Assembly (NCBI GenBank): GCA_965279035.1
Contig: OZ257142.1
Coordinates: forward strand, 2,944,001-3,008,000
Reading direction: 5' to 3'
Length of the DNA stretch: 64,000 bases
Source of the DNA: Bacteroidia bacterium
GTDB taxonomy: Bacteria; Bacteroidota; Bacteroidia; M30B66
This document shows, one piece after another, positions 3,137 through 56,516 of the stretch (positions are counted from its first letter, which is position 1; each line of letters begins with the position of its first letter). The translations under genes and the position numbers were made by a program. Under the pieces are notes generated by a model. That model did no database searches. It saw nothing but the letters and a program-made list of their open reading frames with translations, and had not been told where the DNA came from.

Positions 3137-3252
3137 GGGGCTGCCCCTTTTAATTTCATTTCGCACATGCCTGCCCAATTAAAACGGTCGGGCTTTACGT
3201 TGCAATTTTTTGTTCGTTCCTCTCAAAAAGATTTCCGCTGCAATCCCTCAGC
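3137..3252 (+). ncRNA. Flavo-1-like structured element
   Basis: GGGGCTGCCCC...GGTCGGGCTTT...CCGCTGCAATCCCTCAGC directly after a stop codon; same architecture as 41797-41855; family assignment from memory. Confidence 0.6.
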
Positions 3253-3312
3253 CGGCTTAGCGTAAATAATGGTCGAACATCCTATATTAGAGCAGTTATT
3301 TCCAACGATTTC

Positions 3313-6587: not shown

Positions 6588-6636
6588 TAGTAGCGGGGAC
6601 GGGAGTTGAACCCGTGACCTCAGGGTTATGAATCCT
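6588..6636 (-). repeat. att site: 49-bp duplicate of tRNA-Met 3' part
   Basis: Identical to 24424-24472 (TAGTAGCGGGGACGGG...TTATGAATCCT). Confidence 0.95.
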
Positions 6637-6689: not shown

Positions 6690-7706
6690 TCAAATCAAAA
6701 TTAGATTTAAATTTTGATTTTGTGATTTGAGTTTAGATTTTATCATCTCATATTCCATTCTTCTTGAGTTTAATGCTTCGTGTTTTAAGCGTTTTCTTTC
6801 TTTAAGGATTTGATCACCTCTTCCATAGTATATATCAGCAGGAGTTAGGTTTTGCAATGATTCATGATAACGTTGGTTATTGTAATTATCAACAAATTTT
6901 CCCAGGGCATCTTCAAGTTCTTCCGGACAATAATAGTGATTTAGCTTAACCACGTTTTTCATTGTACGATGATAACGTTCTATTTTACCTTGTGTTTGAG
7001 GATGAAAAGGCCTACCGTGTATTTGATCTATCTCATGGTTTTGCTTAAGGTAAGCACTGAGTTCCGCAGCAATATAACATGAACCATTATCCGATAATAG
7101 TTTGGGACGAGGCTTTGACAGTAATTTGGCCTTTTTAATGGCTCTATCAACGGTTCTTTTTACATCTTCAACTTTCATCCCAGAACAGAGTTCCCAATGC
7201 ACAATATATCGGCTGTAATCATCTAAGATGGTACTTAAATAATACCAGCCCCAACCAATGATTTTAAAGTAAGTAAAGTCTGTTTGCCACATTTGATGAA
7301 CAAATCCTGTTTTCTTAGAAAATTCATCGGCTGCTGAAATGAAAATATGGGCTGGTGAATTGATTAAGCCTCTCGATTTCAAAATACGATAAACGCTCGA
7401 TTCTGAAATGAAAATCTGTTGCTCATCAGTTAGCTTAAAAGCAAGTTCACGAGATGATAATTCAGGATAATTCAAAGCAAGATCTACTACAAGATTCTTT
7501 TGCTGTTGTGGAATACTATTCCATTGCCTTTTTAAAACCCGCTTGCTTGGATTTAAGCCATCAACGCCGTTGTCAGCATATGATTTATACCATTTGTAAA
7601 ATGTGCTCTTATTAAGCCCTATTTCACGTAAGGTGCGATTGACACCAATTTCAGATTGAACAACGAGATCGATGAGTTCCTGCTTTTCGGATGCTGTAAA
7701 ACGCAT
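6690..7706 (-). CDS. Transposase OrfB (rve DDE integrase core)
   Basis: WQTDFTY, LSDNG, PQTQGKIER; frame open back to the A-run slippery site in orfA (-1 frameshift). Confidence 0.93.
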   Translation of the reverse strand: MRFTASEKQELIDLVVQSEIGVNRTLREIGLNKSTFYKWYKSYADNGVDGLNPSKRVLKRQWNSIPQQQKNLVVDLALNYPELSSRELAFKLTDEQQIFISESSVYRILKSRGLINSPAHIFISAADEFSKKTGFVHQMWQTDFTYFKIIGWGWYYLSTILDDYSRYIVHWELCSGMKVEDVKRTVDRAIKKAKLLSKPRPKLLSDNGSCYIAAELSAYLKQNHEIDQIHGRPFHPQTQGKIERYHRTMKNVVKLNHYYCPEELEDALGKFVDNYNNQRYHESLQNLTPADIYYGRGDQILKERKRLKHEALNSRRMEYEMIKSKLKSQNQNLNLILI

Positions 7707-7726
7707 ATATTTTTTCAGTTTTACAG

Positions 7727-8080
7727 TTAATCCAGCATGGACAAGCTTTTTTTTACAATGTCATAGCGCAAAACCAAATCAGCGACCATTTCCTTTAAGC
7801 GCTGATTTTCTTTGCGAAGCTCTGACACTTCATCACTCGTAGCTTCGCGGGTTACATCACCGGAGAGACGCTTCTTACCTGCTTCCAAAAACTCCTTATT
7901 CCATTTATAAAATTGACTCTCCTGTATAGAATACTTCCTACACAATTCTGCTACTGACAATTCAGCACGCAATGCCTCCATAACTATCTGGATCTTCTGT
8001 TCTGAACTGAAAATTCTTCTTGTCTTTCTGCGGATTTCTTTAATGTAATTCTCGGTCGTTTGTTTTTTCTTTGTTTCCAT
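7727..8080 (-). CDS. Transposase OrfA (HTH)
   Basis: FSSEQKIQIV...SVAELCRKYSI...FYKW; GTAAAAAAAAGC slippery motif near the end. Confidence 0.9.
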   Translation of the reverse strand: METKKKQTTENYIKEIRRKTRRIFSSEQKIQIVMEALRAELSVAELCRKYSIQESQFYKWNKEFLEAGKKRLSGDVTREATSDEVSELRKENQRLKEMVADLVLRYDIVKKSLSMLD

Positions 8081-12857: not shown

Positions 12858-12979
12858 AATGTTCAGCATACACCTAAAGAGCCGAACGATACTAACAGAA
12901 TGCTTTAGATTAGACGAATAAAACAAAAATACTAAGCATCAAACTCCAGAAATGCTTAGATTTGTTCGTGTGTGCTGTT
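12858..12979 (-). repeat. attC-like cassette repeat R1 (most diverged)
   Basis: Shares core AATGCTTTAGATTAGACGAATA...CAAACTCC.GAAATGC and terminal inverted arms with R2-R7. Confidence 0.8.
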
Positions 12980-13695: not shown

Positions 13696-14936
13696 TGTAG
13701 GCTCCCCATTTTTAGTACGGTTCTAAATTACAATTTATTATCATTGATTAACTCTTCTTGGCTGGAGTGAAGCGTAGCGGAACGGAGGCCAAGAAGAGTC
13801 TGATTTTTACGTTTATACATCACTGGACTTAAGCCACCCAAAGCATCATGTGGCCTTTCTTCATTGTAGTCTTGCATCCATGTTTCAGTGATGCTTCTTA
13901 CCTCATAGAGAGATTCAAAAATATAATTATCAAGGATTCCTCCTCTAAAGGTTTTATTAAATCTTTCTATCAATGCATTTTGTGTTGGCTTTCCAGGCTG
14001 TATGTAATGAAAGTCTATTTCTTTTATTTCACTCCATTCTTTCGAAAGCTTGGCGATAAATTCAGGTCCGTTATCCATTCGTATTTTTTTAGGTTTTCCA
14101 TGTTTATTGATTAGGTGGTTTAGCACCCAGATTACTCTGCTACTTTTTAATGAATAATCTGTTTCGATAAATAATACCTCACGATTGTAATCATCTATAA
14201 CATTAAAGGATCTGAACTTGCGACCATTGCTGAGAACGTCATGTACAAAATCAATACTCCAAGTATGGTTAAATTCACTTGGTATTACGATTTGTTCTTT
14301 TACTCTTGCTGGCAAACGCTTTTTTGCCTTGCGTCTTAATGGTAGACCCATTTGCTTATAAACCCTGTGGAGGCGTTTGTGGTTTACTTTGACACTCTTG
14401 TTGCGTAAACGATAATAACTCTTCCAAAAGCCTTCTCTGGGGTGTTCAATGCTTAGTTTACTTAAAGCATCATTTAAAAACGAATCATCCTTTTGGGAAC
14501 GATAGTTTAAACTACTCCTGCTTGTTTGTAAAATACGACACGCCTTGCTTATGCCATGAGGATAATGATGCTTGAGCTCTTCTACAATCGCTCTTTTGTG
14601 GCAAGGCTTTAAAGCTTTTTTTCGATTATATACTTTGCCATATCTAGCTCTAAAGCTAAATCTGTATACATGCGCTTTAACTTTGCATTTTCCTCTTCTA
14701 GCCGTTTTATATTCTTCAACTCACTAGCCTCCATGCCACCGTATCGTTGTCGCCACTTGTAAAAAGTAGCCTTCGATACTCCATGCTCTCTGCTAATTGT
14801 TTCAACATCTTTTCCTTGTTCAAACTCTTTAAGGATCTTTGCAATCTGCGTCGGGGTGAATCTTGTCTTTCTCATATTACAGTTTTAAAATTAGAAATTC
14901 TTTTTTCAAACTGTACTATTTTCGGGGGAGCTTACA
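13696..14936 (-). mobile_element. IS3 family element (IS407-like, 1241 bp)
   Basis: TIRs TGTAGGCTCCCC / GGGGAGCTTACA; 4-bp target duplication AAAT. Confidence 0.93.
13728..14875 (-). CDS. IS3 transposase OrfAB (programmed -1 frameshift)
   Basis: OrfA 14609-14875; GAAAAAAAG slippery site; -1 frame runs into [20 protein letters not shown]. Confidence 0.9.
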
Positions 14937-15480: not shown

Positions 15481-16851
15481 CACACCCGTCCAAGACGTTT
15501 GTATAACGAAAATACAATCCTGATTTGATGCGAGATTACTCATCAAAGAACGCTCTTTTGAAAATTAAACCCTCTATAATTTAAAAAAGGGACATTTGTA
15601 ATTCCAGTTTATCAATTTCGTCATCATCTAAAAAGGGTTTATCAAGCCATTTTTTGAGGTCAATTTTCACAAAGAGATTTAATCGAATAAAGGACACCAA
15701 ATTTGAGAGGTGCCAAGAGTGTTTTGCTTCCTTTTGAAGTGTCTTTAAAAGCAGTATGGTGATTAGTGCTGTCCAAATCTGTATCAGAACAGCATTCATG
15801 CTGGTTCCTATGAAAGACTTGATTTTCAGGTGTGTTTTGATCTCCTTGAAGAACGATTCGATGCTCCATCTACGTTTATATAGTTCTGAAATGGTCGATG
15901 CTGTCCAAGAAAAATTGTTTGTAAGAAGTTCAAGATATATCTGTTGTTCTTCATCCCAGATCTGAACCATTCGGAGCTTTTGCGGGTATTTTTCTTTTGA
16001 TTGAGGTAAACTCAAAAAGCCTTTCCAGTCGTATTGCAAGTCTGGATTTGCTTCATCGGTTGGGCTCTTAGTTCGCTCATAAAGTTCAAACTGAATGTTT
16101 TCTTTTCCTCGAATAACAAAGAATACTCCTTGTTCATCTAATTTTCTCATCCAGTTAAAATCGACATATCCTCTATCAGCTACAACAATGCTTCCTGTGG
16201 GAAATTCAATATCATGTGCTGCATTTACATCGTGCTTTTTGCCATCACTCAAATCAGCAAAAACGGGCATACAGCCGTCAAAGTCAAGGACTGTGTGAAG
16301 TTTTATAGCTCCCTTCTTCTTTCGAAATAGTGCCCAGTCGAACACTTTAAGACAAAGGTCAATCGTGGTTGAATCGAGCAGATAGATTTTACGTTTGGGA
16401 AGCAGCTTTCGGCTTGTTTTTAAGGTTGATTCAAACTGCTCATACAAGTTAAAATACATCGCTTGAAACAGCTCCCAGTTGCGATGTTGGTTATTATATG
16501 CCAACGATGATCGCCTCATGGCTTTTGACACTCCCAGATGATTTAAATCGCCTGTTGCTGATCGCATTCCATTGCAAACGTCATTTAAGCTATTAGACTT
16601 GGAAAACTGGCAAAAAACCATTGTCACAAAGTGAGACCAAGCATCATTGCCTTTACAATGTTTATTGGACTCAAACTTTTCTACTAGTTTATTGAAAGAA
16701 TCTCGCTTAATTTTTTGGAATATCTGAGCAAATAATGTGATCTTCATGCCGGAGTTGGTTTATGTTTTTGTGTCGTAACTCAAACATACCGGATTTAATC
16801 CGGACCAACTCTATTTTTTTACCCTATTTTAAAACGTCTTGGACGGGTGTG
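15481..16851 (-). mobile_element. IS4 family element (1371 bp)
   Basis: Perfect 20-bp TIR CACACCCGTCCAAGACGTTT; 9-bp target duplication AGTTTGAAT. Confidence 0.95.
15581..16747 (-). CDS. IS4 family DDE transposase
   Basis: LLDSTTI, VADRGY, YKRRWSIESFFK (YREK) motifs. Confidence 0.95.
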   Translation of the reverse strand: MKITLFAQIFQKIKRDSFNKLVEKFESNKHCKGNDAWSHFVTMVFCQFSKSNSLNDVCNGMRSATGDLNHLGVSKAMRRSSLAYNNQHRNWELFQAMYFNLYEQFESTLKTSRKLLPKRKIYLLDSTTIDLCLKVFDWALFRKKKGAIKLHTVLDFDGCMPVFADLSDGKKHDVNAAHDIEFPTGSIVVADRGYVDFNWMRKLDEQGVFFVIRGKENIQFELYERTKSPTDEANPDLQYDWKGFLSLPQSKEKYPQKLRMVQIWDEEQQIYLELLTNNFSWTASTISELYKRRWSIESFFKEIKTHLKIKSFIGTSMNAVLIQIWTALITILLLKTLQKEAKHSWHLSNLVSFIRLNLFVKIDLKKWLDKPFLDDDEIDKLELQMSLF

Positions 16852-18278: not shown

Positions 18279-18402
18279 AACGTTCCGCACACACCTGAAG
18301 AGCCAAATGAGATGAACGGAATGCTTTAGATTAGACGAATATAACAAGAAAAACGGATGCCTCAAACTCCCGAAATGCTTGGCTTTGCAGGTGTGTGCTG
18401 TT
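18279..18402 (-). repeat. attC-like cassette repeat R4 (best preserved)
   Basis: Arms GCACACACCTGAAGAGCCAA (18287-18306) and TTGGCTTTGCAGGTGTGTGC (18379-18398) complementary 18/20; AAC and GTT ends. Confidence 0.9.
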
Positions 18403-18439: not shown

Positions 18440-18862
18440 CTACTTCAATGCAAATTTAAATGGTAATGTCCACTCGGAACTAATGGTTCTTCTCTTATTG
18501 TCTTTAATTTCTATAGCTGGATTCCATTTAGGCATAATTGAAACAATTCTTAATGCTTCGTTGTCATATGGAGGACATATTCCTTTCAGAATTTTAGGGT
18601 TATTTATTTTTCCGGTTGTGTCTATTCTAAATGTTATAAATACAGTTCCATGCTCACAACCATCTGCGATAGGCCATTTAATATTACGTCTAATAAAAGC
18701 TATTAAGCTGTCTTCACCACATGGAAAACTTGGTGCTGGATTACTTATTAAAATAGTTTTTGTCGAATCAAGTAATTTGTCTTGCCTAGTCGCTTGAGCA
18801 TGACAAAGTGTCTGCAAACTTGAAAGCAAAATAAATGTCTGTATGATGATTGTCTGTTTCAT
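18440..18862 (-). CDS. TonB C-terminal domain protein (cassette gene)
   Basis: Likely start MKQTII; PSFP.G, GTVFITFRIDTTG, EALRIVSIMPKWNPA. Confidence 0.85.
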   Translation of the reverse strand: MKQTIIIQTFILLSSLQTLCHAQATRQDKLLDSTKTILISNPAPSFPCGEDSLIAFIRRNIKWPIADGCEHGTVFITFRIDTTGKINNPKILKGICPPYDNEALRIVSIMPKWNPAIEIKDNKRRTISSEWTLPFKFALK

Positions 18863-18929
18863 TAAATTACCACTAACCTTTAGACTTGCAGTCAAAGATT
18901 TTAGCTGATAAATTTACCATAAATAAATG

Positions 18930-19085
18930 TAGTTAACCGAAAGCAGGGCGACCTATGCGCTAACAAGGATAATAGGCCTATGGAACGATATAGTGCCCTA
19001 CTTTCTGGTTATTTAAGCCTCAGATAGATATTCGGGATTCAGGCCCATTATAAAGGTTTTGAGGTACAAATAACCATTGGTTAAT
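18930..19085 (+). ncRNA. Predicted IS110 bridge RNA
   Basis: Two stem-loops with internal loops: CGCTAAC and GGAACG match the target; ATAGATAT and TAAAGG match the donor junction; ends approximate. Confidence 0.7.
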
Positions 19086-19107
19086 CCGTTTTGCTAATTA
19101 TAAAATT

Positions 19108-20121
19108 ATGAATTCAAACCAGAACAACCAAAAACATTTTGTAGGAACAGATGTTTCAAAAGAAACACTTGATGTAACGATCTTTTTCAACTCCTCAATG
19201 CATTTTCATCAGCAATTTTCAAATGACAGCAAGGGCTTTAAGCAATTGCTGAAATGGCTAGAAACCTATCCTGAATTCAGTTTTGAAAATACTTTATTCT
19301 GCATGGAACATACAGGAATTTACACTCGTCAGTTTGTTGAATTCCTCCTTTCGAAAGAAGCAAAGGTATGGATGGAGTCGGCACTGCATTTAAAGCGTTC
19401 TATGGGCATGACAAGGGGCAAAAGTGATAAGATCGATTCACTGCGAATTGCACGCTATGCAATGACTCATCAGGACCAAGCCAGGCTCGTAAATCTTTCC
19501 AATAAAACATTGTTGCTTATCAAAGACCTTATGAGTGCAAGAGAGCGGAGTAAAAAGGCCTACCAGTCCATAAAAGTCTCCATTGATGAAATGCAAAGAG
19601 TCGATGCAGCAACAGCAAAAGAGCTCTTGAGGATTAATAAACCAGCCCTTTCTGGATTATTGAAAAGCAAGATGGCGTTGGAAAAACGGATGATGGAATT
19701 AATAGCGATGGATCCTGAACTGAACGAGCTATTTGAGCTGGTTACTTCTGTCAAAGGTGTGGGTAATGTATTGGCAACCGAACTGATTGTTTATACACAT
19801 GCATTTAAAAGAATGGATGAAGCCAAACAACTGGCCTGCTATTGCGGAGTCGCTCCTTTTTCTCATACTTCCGGCACGAGTGTGCATGGAAGAAATGGAA
19901 CTTCAAACTTTGCTAACATGGGACTTAAATCAACTTTACACTTGGCTGCACTTTCTTCAATTCGTTACGTACCTGAGCTTAAAACATATTATCAGAGGAA
20001 AGTAGCTGAGGGAAAATCCAAAATGAGCGTAATTAATGCCGTGCGGAATAAACTGTTGCAACGTGTCTTAGCAGTGGTAAAAAGAGGAACGCCTTACCAA
20101 GAAAATTATCAAGTAAATTAA
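19108..20121 (+). CDS. IS110 family recombinase (DEDD)
   Basis: VGTDVSK, CMEHTG, KSDKIDS, SVKGVG, YCGVAP...SGTS. Confidence 0.95.
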   Translation: MNSNQNNQKHFVGTDVSKETLDVTIFFNSSMHFHQQFSNDSKGFKQLLKWLETYPEFSFENTLFCMEHTGIYTRQFVEFLLSKEAKVWMESALHLKRSMGMTRGKSDKIDSLRIARYAMTHQDQARLVNLSNKTLLLIKDLMSARERSKKAYQSIKVSIDEMQRVDAATAKELLRINKPALSGLLKSKMALEKRMMELIAMDPELNELFELVTSVKGVGNVLATELIVYTHAFKRMDEAKQLACYCGVAPFSHTSGTSVHGRNGTSNFANMGLKSTLHLAALSSIRYVPELKTYYQRKVAEGKSKMSVINAVRNKLLQRVLAVVKRGTPYQENYQVN

Positions 20122-20142
20122 TTTGGAAAACTCATAGATATC

Positions 20143-20261
20143 GTTCCGCACACACCTGAAGAGCCAAACGAGGTGAACGAAATGCTTTAGATTAGATGAA
20201 TATAACAAGAAAAACGAATGCTTCAAACTCCCGAAATGCTTGGCTTTGCTAGTATGCCGTT
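20143..20261 (-). repeat. attC-like cassette repeat R5 (its AAC displaced to 18875-18877 by IS110)
   Basis: GTTCCGCACACACCTGAAGAGCC...GTATGCCGTT. Confidence 0.88.
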
Positions 20262-20889: not shown

Positions 20890-20918
20890 AAGATAATGAT
20901 TTTAAAATGGTTACCGTT

Positions 20919-21042
20919 AACGTTCCGCACACACCTGAAGAGCCAAATGAGATGAACGGAATGATTTAGATTAGACGAATATAACAAGAAAAACGGATGC
21001 CTCAAACTCCAGAAATGCATGGCTTTGCTGGTATGTGCTGTT
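20919..21042 (-). repeat. attC-like cassette repeat R6
   Basis: AACGTTCCGCACACACCTGAAGAGCC...GGTATGTGCTGTT, 124 bp. Confidence 0.9.
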
Positions 21043-24421: not shown

Positions 24422-24426
24422 CGTAG

Positions 24427-24500
24427 TAGCGGGGACGGGAGTTGAACCCGTGACCTCAGGGTTATGAATCCTGCGCTCTAACCATCTGAGCTACCCCGCC
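24427..24500 (-). tRNA. tRNA-Met (CAT), probably elongator
   Basis: GGCGGGGTAGCTCAGATGGTTAGAGCGCAGGATTCATAACCCTGAGGTCACGGGTTCAACTCCCGTCCCCGCTA cloverleaf; TATATTTG -7 box at 24512-24519. Confidence 0.95.
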
Positions 24501-40115: not shown

Positions 40116-40550
40116 TTAAAGGAATGATTCATTGAACACTATGGAATGTTGATTTACAAATTGTTTAGTCCAAGATTTAATTTGATTTCTTACTGAACGA
40201 AATGATTGCATGATTTCATTTTCAGTTCCTAAAGCCTTTGCTGGATCGGGAAAATTTTGATGAATTCGAATGGCTTTGCCGGAAAAATAAGGACAGTTTT
40301 CATTGGCATTATCGCATACAGTAATGATATAATTGAATTCAATTCCTAAATATTCATCCAAAACAGTGGAGGTATGATTTGAAATATCAATACCGTCTTC
40401 TTTCATAACAGCAATTGCACGTTGATTCAGTCCATGCGCTTCGATTCCAGCTGAATAGATTTGAGCTTTATTTCCCAAGAAATGTCGAAAATATCCTTCG
40501 GCCATTTGGGATCGACAGGAGTTTCCAGTGCAGAGAATGAGGATGTTCAT
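40116..40550 (-). CDS. arsC: Arsenate reductase (LMW-PTP type)
   Basis: CTGNSCRSQMAEG, TVCD...CP, DPA; ars context. Confidence 0.92.
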   Translation of the reverse strand: MNILILCTGNSCRSQMAEGYFRHFLGNKAQIYSAGIEAHGLNQRAIAVMKEDGIDISNHTSTVLDEYLGIEFNYIITVCDNANENCPYFSGKAIRIHQNFPDPAKALGTENEIMQSFRSVRNQIKSWTKQFVNQHSIVFNESFL

Positions 40551-40551
40551 T

Positions 40552-40614
40552 TAATTACGGATTTTCAATTACGAATTGGCAATTACGAATTACGAATGAT
40601 CAATTACGAAATGG
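40552..40614. repeat. Heptamer tandem tract (AATTACG/AATGATC)
   Basis: CAATTACGAATTACGAATGATCAATTACGAA. Confidence 0.75.
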
Positions 40615-40655
40615 GAATTGAGGTACGTGCATTTGAAATGACTTGGCTGAAGTGT

Positions 40656-41693
40656 TTAAGATGTTTGAAATTTTGATTTTTGAGAGCGGGCAAAACGAAC
40701 AAGTAAAATTAAAACGGGCACTTCGATAAGAGGACCGATAACGGCGGCAAATGCAGCACCTGATGATAATCCGAAAACGGCAATGGCAACTGCAATTCCT
40801 AATTCGAAATTATTTCCAGAAGATGTGAATGCAATGGTAACTGCTTCGGAATACTGAGCACCGGTTTTACGAGCAAGATAAAAAGCTAAGAAAAATATGA
40901 TTCCAAAAAAGATGCTTAATGGAATGGCAATTCGGATAACATCAAGTGGAAGATTGATGAGTGTTTGTCCTTTAAGACTGAACATGAGCACAATAGTAAA
41001 TAATAATGCAATGAGTGTTATTGGGCTAATGCGGGGAAGAAAAACGTTTGAATACCAGCTTTTTCCTTTCATTGGAATTAAACAAGTGCGCAATAAAATG
41101 CCGATAATAAATGGAATGCCTAAATAAATAAAAACAGTTCCTGCAATTTCGCTCATGGGTATATCGACCACAATGCCTGTAAAACCAAATAATTCGGGCA
41201 GGAACGTTATAAAAAACCAAGCATAAATAGAATAAAACACAACTTGAAAAATGCTATTAAATGCAACAAGTGCGGCCACATAATCGCGATCACCACCAGC
41301 CAAATCATTCCAAACAATAACCATTGCAATGCAAGGTGCAATTCCAATTAGCATAAGTCCAACCGTATATTCAACTTCATTTGGCAAAAAAATACGAGCC
41401 AATAAAAACATAAGAAGCGGTGAAAGAACCCAATTGAAAAGAAAAACAATTCCAAATAATTTTATATTTCGAAATAGTACAGGTATTCGGCTGTAATTGA
41501 CTTTTGCTAATGGAGGAATCATCATCAGAATGAGTCCTATAGCAAGTGGAATATTGGTACTGCCCTGCCCCATTTGATTAATGAAATTGGGTAAACTAGG
41601 AAAGACTAAGCTTAAAACAATTCCAGCTGTCATTGCTAGAAAAATCCAAAGTGTTAAAAAGCGATCAAGGAAAGACATGGGGAGAATTAGCAA
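40656..41693 (-). CDS. acr3: ACR3 family arsenite efflux transporter
   Basis: FLDRFLTLWIFLAM, APCIAMVIVWN, GNNFELGIAVAI, GPLIEVP; start may be MSFLDR. Confidence 0.93.
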   Translation of the reverse strand: MLILPMSFLDRFLTLWIFLAMTAGIVLSLVFPSLPNFINQMGQGSTNIPLAIGLILMMIPPLAKVNYSRIPVLFRNIKLFGIVFLFNWVLSPLLMFLLARIFLPNEVEYTVGLMLIGIAPCIAMVIVWNDLAGGDRDYVAALVAFNSIFQVVFYSIYAWFFITFLPELFGFTGIVVDIPMSEIAGTVFIYLGIPFIIGILLRTCLIPMKGKSWYSNVFLPRISPITLIALLFTIVLMFSLKGQTLINLPLDVIRIAIPLSIFFGIIFFLAFYLARKTGAQYSEAVTIAFTSSGNNFELGIAVAIAVFGLSSGAAFAAVIGPLIEVPVLILLVRFARSQKSKFQTS

Positions 41694-41745
41694 TTACGAA
41701 TGATCAATTACGAATTAAGAATGATCAATTACGAATGATTGAATA
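41685..41745. repeat. Heptamer tandem tract (AATTACG/AATGATC)
   Basis: CAATTACGAATGATCAATTACGAATTAAGAATGATCAATTACGAATG. Confidence 0.75.
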
Positions 41746-41796
41746 TGTATGAATGAATACACTGCTCAATCTACTTTGTACTTTCTACTAGTTCAA

Positions 41797-56235: not shown

Positions 56236-56246
56236 GACAAAAAAAT

Positions 56247-56342
56247 GGGTAAGTTACTTATATCGCACCGCTCAACCACCTACCCTTGCTACCTTCCGGT
56301 CCTGGGGGATTTCAGCAGGAGCTGGTCGTACAAGACTTACCC
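56247..56342 (-). ncRNA. ffs: Signal recognition particle RNA (4.5S)
   Basis: Minus strand CAGGACCGGAAGGTAGCA domain IV; terminal GGGTAAGT/ACTTACCC stem; TATTTTTG -7 box at 56347-56354. Confidence 0.92.
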
Positions 56343-56516
56343 GCCGCAAAAATAGGAAAATGAACGTATGAAAGTTTGATATCGCTCTATTTTTTTGAAA
56401 GCGCCTATTATTCAAGTATTTATATTAAGCAGCTAATTAAGCAGTGCAAGAATCAAATGGAAAGGAAGGAATTTCGCATGCTGAAACTGTTATATTTGCC
56501 CCTAAATCAAATTAAA

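Follow-up and report, generated by a model that had tools for sequence, protein, structure and literature searches.

The stretch of DNA analysed here, called the window throughout, comprises 64,000 nucleotides (nt) of the genome of a Bacteroidia bacterium (assembly GCA_965279035.1, contig OZ257142.1, positions 2,944,001 to 3,008,000) and carries an insertion sequence (IS) of the IS110 group that abuts a copy of an attC-like repeat. A sequence-only reading of the same DNA had proposed that the element is an RNA-guided parasite of a cassette system, inserted exactly at the cassette crossover and equipped with a bridge RNA programmed against the repeat. The evidence presented below makes it very probable that this is an active IS110-group element whose recombinase is directed to cassette junctions by a bridge RNA encoded in its own left end. 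The parts of the locus are:

18878-20142, plus strand: IS110-group insertion sequence, 1265 bp
18871-18877, plus strand: left target CACTAAC, whose last base, at 18877, is the core C; on the other strand it reads GTTAGTG, with which the next cassette starts
18878-19107, plus strand: non-coding left end of 230 nt, without an open reading frame (ORF), which encodes the predicted bridge RNA and can be aligned to the corresponding ends of relatives
19108-20121, plus strand: recombinase gene, 337 amino acids (aa), with a DEDD RuvC-like domain and a Tnp domain
20122-20142, plus strand: right end, 21 nt past the stop codon
20143-20263, plus strand: attC-like repeat copy abutted by the IS, with the right target GTTCC at 20143-20147; identified from repeat families D1-D3, an alignment and a pattern search

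Boundaries and insertion point

The ends of the element were set by comparison with uninterrupted repeat copies and with the end motifs of relatives, CTTTAG... on the left and ...CATAGAnnTC on the right, which are common to the window element and 64 related loci. The right flank begins with GTTCCGCACACACC, the start of a copy of a repeat of about 125 nt. Two uninterrupted repeat copies read AAC-GTTCCGC without an insertion, and the empty site can therefore be written as ...TAAC/GTTCC..., the slash marking the cut. A target-site duplication is absent at the window element; the sole base shared by the two junctions is a C, found at both 18877 and 20142, which leaves the boundary ambiguous by one base. 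The combination of a long left end (230 nt) with a short right end (21 nt) is that of the IS110 group. The motifs and coordinates of the sequence-only reading all proved correct when the letters were read again; its span of 18871-20150 contains the element and also takes in 7 nt of flank on each side. A search of a plasmid collection with the DNA of the element returned no match.

The recombinase

The 337-aa ORF matches Pfam PF01548 (DEDD_Tnp_IS110) and PF02371 (Transposase_20), as well as the NCBIfam model NF033542, 'IS110 family RNA-guided transposase', at 157 bits, above its cut-off of 140. Residues D15, E67, D107, D110, S255 and S258 are invariant across 33 aligned homologues. The N-terminal DEDD domain is followed, as in the IS110 group, by a C-terminal Tnp domain with a conserved serine. 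The catalytic roles of these positions, including which serine is the nucleophile, we take to be those of IS621. The closest solved structures are those of IS621 (8wt6, E = 2.7e-26) and ISCro4 (9t56, E = 8.2e-26), both of which align with the protein from end to end. On these sequence grounds the recombinase is a member of the IS110 family.

A predicted bridge RNA in the left end

The left end holds two predicted loop modules, each with a pair of putative guides:

18927-19077, plus strand: predicted bridge RNA, its span taken from a 151-nt contig of an RNA library; structured core at about 18936-19066
18939-19005, plus strand: target-binding loop module, with an outer stem (18939-18949 / 18995-19005) and an inner hairpin between the guides
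18957-18964, plus strand: left target guide GCGCTAAC, in sense orientation to the DNA on the left of the cut; CGCTAAC lies at 18958-18964
18982-18987, plus strand: right target guide GGAACG, reverse complement of C-GTTCC
19018-19064, plus strand: donor-binding loop module, with the stem CCTCA (19018-19022) / TGAGG (19060-19064)
19024-19031, plus strand: left donor guide ATAGATAT, identical to the right end ...ATAGATAT-C
19051-19056, plus strand: right donor guide TAAAGG, reverse complement of C-CTTTA

The arms of the outer stem of the target loop are GAAAGCAGGGC (18939-18949) and GCCCTACTTTC (18995-19005). The layout is like that of the IS621 bridge RNA, each loop carrying a sense guide on the 5' side and an antisense guide on the 3' side with the core in both. 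The order of the guides, a bottom-strand match 5' of a top-strand match, is also that of IS110-type elements, which combine it with a long left end and a short right end, the sense guide lying 5' of the antisense guide (PMC11208160, PMC11187229). A comparison of the left end with Rfam gave no family at gathering thresholds and, at E values up to 10, only two chance-level matches to long non-coding RNAs.

In the proposed mechanism, the left end would be transcribed and the resulting bridge RNA would direct the recombinase. In its target loop, GCGCTAAC would read the DNA left of the cut and GGAACG the DNA to the right, the two overlapping on the single core C. In its donor loop, ATAGATAT and TAAAGG would read the joined ends of an excised circle (...ATAGATAT-C-CTTTA...). 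The programmed site, ...CTAAC/GTTCC..., would correspond to the junction of the attC-like repeat of one cassette with the start of the next. The constant left guide would read the GTTAGCG-type core, a conserved sequence that changes little from host to host, and the right guide would read the adjoining 5-nt spacer, which is host-specific, and be re-programmed to suit it. Such an element would home to cassette boundaries throughout the array, always antisense to the cassette genes.

Guides and flanks among relatives

Related loci were collected by a scan with a protein profile, limited to one genome per species, which yielded 80 loci; a scan with a single protein as query had found nothing, and a profile built from an alignment was then used. 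Of the 80 loci, 64 showed the left end (CTTTAG...) upstream of the gene. The remaining 16, in which there was no motif within 450 nt or the contig ended, were dropped (L024, L042, L048, L052, L055, L058, L063, L064, L066, L067, L070, L074-L077 and L080). Together with the window this gave 65 rows, 60 with a right end (...CATAGAnnTC) and 53 with a right flank of at least 7 nt. The end motifs used to set the ends of the relatives do not involve the target loop.

The right target guide was scored by comparing the five bases 5' of the complement G of the core with the reverse complement of the first five bases of the flank. The two agree in 5/5 positions in 28 of the 53 rows and in 4/5 in a further 20; three rows reach 3/5 and two rows 2/5. 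Over the 47 unique guide/flank pairs the mean is 4.34, compared with 1.82 (maximum 2.49) after permutation, and 0/10000 permutations reached the observed value. The rows contain 27 distinct right-guide pentamers, 18 of which have a member with a 5/5 match; seven have 4/5 as their best match and two are worse. Examples are GGAAC with GTTCC (window and L004), CAAAC with GTTTG (L003 and L005), AAAAC with GTTTT (L006 and L007) and AGACC with GGTCT (L043, and L008 with one mismatch). Loci with the same guide differ in their flanks beyond the bases that the guide specifies and therefore represent separate insertions.

The left target guide behaves differently from the right one. It is nearly constant, (G/C/T)CGCTAAC, in all relatives with at least 50% identity, whose left flanks end in TAAC or CAAC. 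In relatives at 43-45% identity the left guides are wholly different and equal their own left flanks in 8/8 positions (L059, L060, L065, L072, L078 and L079). The left donor guide in turn tracks the right end of its own element by clade, ATAGATAT occurring with ...GATATC, ATAGAAAT with ...GAAATC, ATAGATTT with ...GATTTC and ATAGAAAA with ...GAAAAC. As in IS110-group elements, the loops thus match the target flanks and the joined ends of the element itself, and the guides covary with both. The expectation that a comparison of homologous copies would find loops varying with their targets was borne out for the target loops, which follow the flanks, and likewise for the donor loops, which follow the ends; the anatomy given for the predicted two-loop RNA is exact.

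Helices, complementary dinucleotides and a predicted junction promoter

For the helices, the 5' arm of each sequence was scored for pairing once with the 3' arm of the same sequence and once with arms taken from the others. The mean scores were:

Outer stem of the target loop (P1): own arms 9.82, arms of other sequences 6.45
Shorter helix 1: own arms 3.80, arms of other sequences 3.16
Shorter helix 2: own arms 4.53, arms of other sequences 3.89
Shorter helix 3: own arms 4.31, arms of other sequences 3.81

For each of the four helices, 0/2000 shuffles reached the observed mean. Two dinucleotides 3' of the right guides also complement the DNA of the partner. The AT that follows the right target guide (18988-18989) complements the final two bases of the right end in 46 of 60 rows, and its variants AA (8 rows) and TT (1 row) occur solely with right ends carrying TT and AA, respectively. 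In 60 of 65 rows, the TT that follows the right donor guide (19057-19058) has its complement in the AA that precedes the core. By analogy, these dinucleotides resemble the 'handshake guides' described for IS621 (PMC13626964).

Joining of the two ends would also bring together a predicted promoter. Of 47 distinct junctions, 45 have an nTTG at a distance of exactly 17 nt from the right end, and every one has a TAGnnTnn box in positions 4-11 of the left end. In the window the joined ends would read TTTG (20122-20125)-N20-TAGACTTG (18881-18888), and these two boxes would form the promoter once the ends meet in a circle. They fit what we take to be the Bacteroidota-type consensus, TTTG / TAnnTTTG, and presumably differ in this from the promoter boxes of IS621 and ISCro4. 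Among the contigs of the sequencing runs described below, no joint of 20142 to 18878 was present, though such contigs drop rare forms. A further box, TAAATTTA, lies at 18909-18916, 20 nt past the TTG of the left end (18886-18888), and has the form TAnATTTG/A in the close clade. If the same presumed consensus applies, it could act as a second, circle-independent promoter just upstream of position 18927, where the RNA-library contig starts.

Copy number and evidence from sequencing runs

Contigs from sequencing runs were placed on the window. In the run labelled with the source organism, one 1282-nt contig covers 18874-20155 without differences at a depth of 1117, as compared with 99.9 and 107.6 for the unique flanks; a depth of 1117 against about 100 implies about 11 copies of the IS in the source organism. 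This contig extends without branching into TAAC at its left side and into GTTCCGCACACAC at its right, so both flanks should be common to the roughly 11 copies, although the assembly may have lost minor variants. The conserved middle of the repeat (20158-20211) has a summed depth of 5145 in the same run, corresponding to about 50 copies. Insertions at unrelated sites with unchanged loops were not seen: the copies are represented by one unbranched contig with the same flanks. Guide/flank covariation and the common flanks of these copies together support the earlier description of the element as an RNA-guided parasite of the cassette system. In the same run, a contig of depth 110 with 34 nt on its shorter side joins 20209 to 18866. 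This is not the circle junction and may represent another locus, at which a truncated repeat precedes an IS copy.

Three other runs contain related sequences. A lake-water metagenome holds a copy with 19 differences in 1197 nt whose outer left flank is different but ends in the same TAAC. A contig from an RNA library links the 3' part of the gene, by way of GTTCCGC, to unrelated sequence. A lake-water metatranscriptome yields a single 151-nt contig at 18927-19077 and none of the gene, at a depth of 2.3 and with 2 differences. Stretches that these two RNA runs leave uncovered carry no information. One of these, an A>C change at 18984, turns the right target guide from GGAACG into GGCACG and suggests a close relative re-programmed to another spacer. 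Since contigs show no true transcript ends, the 151-nt contig is a hint, and a weak one, that the bridge RNA is made; that it is made in the source organism is a prediction from the anatomy of the left end.

These data also bear on the idea that the element is an inactive relic, a single ancient insertion inherited with the array and no longer homing. Only one copy is present in the 64-kb window, and two perfect or near-perfect sites in the array stand empty. The ORF is nevertheless intact, with all residues present at the conserved catalytic positions. The IS exceeds its flanks about 11-fold in depth in a contig without differences, and the metagenome and RNA-library copies are near-identical to it and have other outer flanks next to the same TAAC and GTTCCGC, respectively. 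A relic is therefore scarcely credible.

Weighing the case for RNA guidance

A number of observations count against the proposal that an RNA guides the element to these sites. Five of the 53 rows have right-guide matches of 3/5 or poorer; L001, with a degenerate right end, has a flank that does not match its guide, and L002 is without a right end. In the window the left target guide GCGCTAAC agrees with the left flank CCACTAAC in 6/8 positions, and among the relatives with at least 50% identity the match is 4-8 of 8, typically 4-7, so that left recognition would have to tolerate mismatches or to use about 5 nt. The rows are related by descent, and permutation counts overstate their independence. 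The single-sequence fold of the left end is modestly better than shuffles (z = -2.45, 2/200). The gap between own and other arms is small for the three short helices, and RNAalifold recovered just 3 pairs from the raw alignment because the outer stem is off by one column between clades. The 151-nt contig, the one support from an RNA library, could be of a single read length or stem from DNA carry-over. Perfect TAACGTTCC sites at 20918-20926 (plus strand) and 41201-41209 (minus strand) are unoccupied; the former is the equivalent junction of a neighbouring repeat, the latter lies outside the array.

Part of this could be accommodated if the protein recognised the folded or palindromic DNA of the repeat directly and the agreement between loops and flanks were a coincidence or the result of copying of the left end from the target. 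The target is indeed a structured palindrome, and both the imperfect left-guide match in the window and the modest single-sequence fold speak for this reading. This explanation has to contend with 27 right-guide pentamers that track 27 flanks beyond the reach of any of 10000 permutations, and with relatives at unrelated, non-palindromic targets whose left guides differ accordingly, matching in 8/8 positions in six loci. It also leaves aside that the guides are placed in internal loops of covarying helices and that experiments with IS621 and ISEc21 demonstrated that the RNA determines the target (PMC11208160, PMC11187229). It is accordingly considered highly improbable, and guidance by the left-end RNA, with chemistry presumably like that of IS621, is retained as the reading that the covariation favours.

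The cassette array and the nature of its repeats

Five uninterrupted repeat copies lie in the window, at 12858, 13440, 17246, 18279 and 20919. They alternate with single co-oriented ORFs on the minus strand at cassette-like spacings of 582, 1033, 596 (IS subtracted) and 779 bp. Read in the sense of the genes, the repeat has the form TAAC-arm...arm-GGAAC-GTTA and follows each co-oriented ORF. An attC site is an imperfect palindrome, R''(RYYYAAC)...L''...L'...R'(GTTRRRY), placed after a promoterless cassette ORF; against this pattern, the conserved body of 125 nt is unusual, and the 5-nt spacer is present on one side only. The complementarity between cassette start and cassette end, in turn, is specific to the cassette, as between R' and R'' of attC sites. 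The 14 nt to the left of the IS are complementary in 13/14 positions to the distal arm of the repeat at 18279 and in at most 6 to those of the other repeats. Two other cassettes pair with their own ends in 10/14 and 9/14 positions, and with other repeats in the same rows in at most 8; two further cassettes, compared by eye, give 9/13, and 12/16 with one gap.

By this 13/14 pairing with its own cassette end, the left flank of the IS is part of one cassette, and the right flank is part of the repeat of the previous one. The element thus appears to sit at a unit boundary, within GGAAC-G-TTAG in gene sense, which would be the place of the crossover in a canonical attC site, where recombination takes place at G/TT. 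The earlier statement that the IS had inserted at the cassette crossover is upheld as far as the unit boundary is concerned, through the cassette-specific arm complementarity; its crossover part is a deduction from a window that contains no integrase. Next to the left junction lies the following gene:

18440-18863, minus strand: cassette ORF with a TonB_C domain, its ATG 14 nt from the left junction of the IS and its strand opposite to that of the IS

The same arrangement recurs among relatives. With loci of at least 250 nt of left flank and ORFs of at least 50 aa, an ORF on the opposite strand starts within 100 nt of the junction, mostly at 10-60 nt, in 39 of 43 relatives with TAAC-type targets, as compared with none of 10 relatives with other targets and 165 of 500 random control positions. 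Reconstructed empty sites fold into hairpins of the form ...CCGCTAAC-arm...arm-5-6 nt-GTTAGCGG... (e.g. L020, L033, L007, L043 and L004). This statement covers the folded examples. A scan of the right flanks for 10-mer inverted repeats did not separate real from shuffled sequences (loci with 1, 2, 3 and 4 mismatches: 5, 23, 15 and 6 observed; 30, 282, 562 and 106 shuffled) and missed the degenerate copy of the window.

A point against an integron-like system is that no tyrosine recombinase or integron integrase was found in the array of the window, in the island that contains it or beside the array. The genomes of five relatives gave only weak Xer-type matches, none of them above the cut-off of the integron-integrase model TIGR02249. 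In two Cytophagales-type genomes, XerA-like tyrosine recombinases lie 1-2.5 kb from IS copies (L015 and L025/L083):

L015, 4595-5572, minus strand: XerA-like recombinase, on the same strand as the cassette genes
L083, 1135-2304, plus strand: XerA-like recombinase, near the IS copy

They score 219 and 227 bits with NF040815 (cut-off 220) and 192-199 bits with TIGR02249 (cut-off 265). The TIGR02249 matches are without profile positions 178-240, which we take to be the site of the IntI-specific segment. These enzymes are candidates for the recombinase of non-canonical cassette arrays.

The repeats might instead form an intergenic family resembling repetitive extragenic palindromic (REP) sequences or miniature inverted-repeat transposable elements (MITEs). 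The element would then be RNA-guided as described, an ordinary IS110 member homing to repeated palindromes, and the 'cassette crossover' would be without enzymatic meaning. This would agree with the integrase searches just described and with the scattering of IS copies over megabases in the complete genomes of relatives. It would also agree with the report of IntegronFinder 2.0, which gave a single complete integron in Bacteroidetes. Targeting of REP sequences is established for IS110/IS1111 members such as IS621 and ISPa11. On the other side stand the alternation of the repeats with single co-oriented ORFs at cassette-like spacings, unit starts that complement their own ends (10/14, 9/14 and 13/14) better than those of their neighbours (at most 8), the hairpins of the reconstructed empty sites in relatives, ...CTAAC-arm...arm-spacer-GTTAG..., and the Xer/XerA-like genes near two IS copies. 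A mere REP-like or MITE-like family is on this evidence unlikely, though it is the most serious of the alternatives. The repeats are accordingly termed attC-like, their status as true integron attC sites being unproven.

The array lies between two exact copies of a 49-nt direct repeat (6588-6636 and 24424-24472) that corresponds to the 3' part of a tRNA (24427-24500, minus strand). Within the roughly 17.8 kb that they enclose lie an IS3-type pair (6690-8080), an rve fragment (13728-14351), a DDE transposase (15581-16747) and the array itself. This stretch resembles an island that has inserted at the tRNA gene, although the search for an integrase gene came back empty. Elsewhere in the window, two clusters of 14-nt tandem repeats of the AATTACGAAT type (family D4; 40547-40624 and 41665-41749), about 1.1 kb apart, flank an ORF at 40656-41693. 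Matches to Flavo-1 RNA (3182-3261) and to the Bacteroidales-type small signal recognition particle RNA (56243-56349), both on the minus strand, assign the organism to Bacteroidota.

A single base shared by donor and target

Only one base, C, had been noted as shared between the target and donor cores of the window element, and this holds in every row examined: in 65 of 65, C is the sole base common to donor (...T-C-C...) and target (...A/G-C-N...), and each guide matches its own DNA on both sides of this C. The core of IS621, in contrast, is a CT dinucleotide (PMC11208160), which is not present in the window lineage. The left donor guide also carries U at the core position in this lineage and not C as in IS621. 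If the heteroduplex spanned two bases and held one mismatch, traces of it should remain. None were seen at left junctions or left ends; the T of the donor occurs at no left junction and the base following the target C at no left end.

It is conceivable that the lineage works with a one-base crossover, by a strand exchange unlike that of IS621, and that an RNA-guided IS here shuffles and spreads cassettes and is not only their parasite. The idea arises because many identical copies of the same orientation lie at the junctions of arrays without an integrase. If it were true, the left junction of one copy could recombine with the right junction of a second copy, and whole blocks of cassettes could be excised and re-inserted in this way. 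We regard this as improbable.

Relation to known systems

Among known systems, IS621 and ISCro4 (Durrant et al. 2024, PMC11208160; Hiraizumi et al. 2026, PMC13626964) share with the window element the domain order, the end-to-end protein alignment, a bridge RNA in the long left end and two loops with sense left and antisense right guides that both contain the core. Protein identity is low, and the targets differ, the REP sequence of Escherichia coli for IS621 and a cassette junction for the window element. ISEc21 (Siddiquee et al. 2024, PMC11187229) likewise has an upstream non-coding region, in which the bottom-strand match precedes the top-strand match on the 5' side. Its relatives, too, are naturally redirected by a few changes in the guide, and its insertion leaves the target unduplicated. 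The site of ISEc21 is linear and lies inside transposase genes of the IS3 family, whereas the window lineage inserts at attC-like palindromes.

The IS1111-attC elements (ISKpn4, ISPst6 and ISPa25) insert at one fixed position and in one orientation at one end of attC, and guidance by a seekRNA has been demonstrated for ISKpn4 and ISPst6 (PMC11187229). They resemble the window element in fixed-position insertion at a cassette end, in RNA guidance and in the expectation that the occupied site is disabled. They differ in that the RNA and the non-coding region lie downstream of tnp, the order of the guides is reversed and subterminal inverted repeats of 7-17 bp are present (PMC11187229). Their hosts are Proteobacteria with canonical IntI integrons and those of the window lineage Bacteroidota. 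With 21 nt after the stop codon and guides upstream of tnp, the window element falls outside this subgroup. The IS1111-attC precedent that had been invoked for it therefore applies to the treatment of cassettes, which is the same, and not to membership, which is in the IS110 group. Because subgroup and hosts are different, the attC-homing habit appears to have arisen separately, which would make the IS110 group of Bacteroidota the second origin of homing to cassette recombination sites. Group IIC-attC introns (PMC3001079) are also mobile elements specialised on the attC sites of cassettes; they are retroelements with a ribozyme and a reverse transcriptase, in contrast to the DEDD recombinase and guide RNA of the window element. 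A literature search found no description of IS110-group elements that target attC-like sites within a scope that stopped short of supplements, including the IS110 orthologue and core tables of Durrant et al. What is well supported is a new lineage of a known kind of RNA-guided element, not a new mechanism.

Implications

The lineage provides a natural series of re-programming, in which 27 right-guide pentamers occur with matching flanks and the left guide stays fixed on the GTTAGCG-type core. Directly testable as design rules for bridge recombinases are the split between a guide that stays constant and one adapted to the host, the single core base, and the dinucleotides that resemble handshake guides. 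In the host, an insertion comes between a repeat and the cassette after it and should leave that junction frozen; with about 11 copies among about 50 repeats, the influence on the array would be strong. Such insertions could serve as an independent marker for non-canonical cassette arrays of Bacteroidota, most of which are missed by current integron finders.

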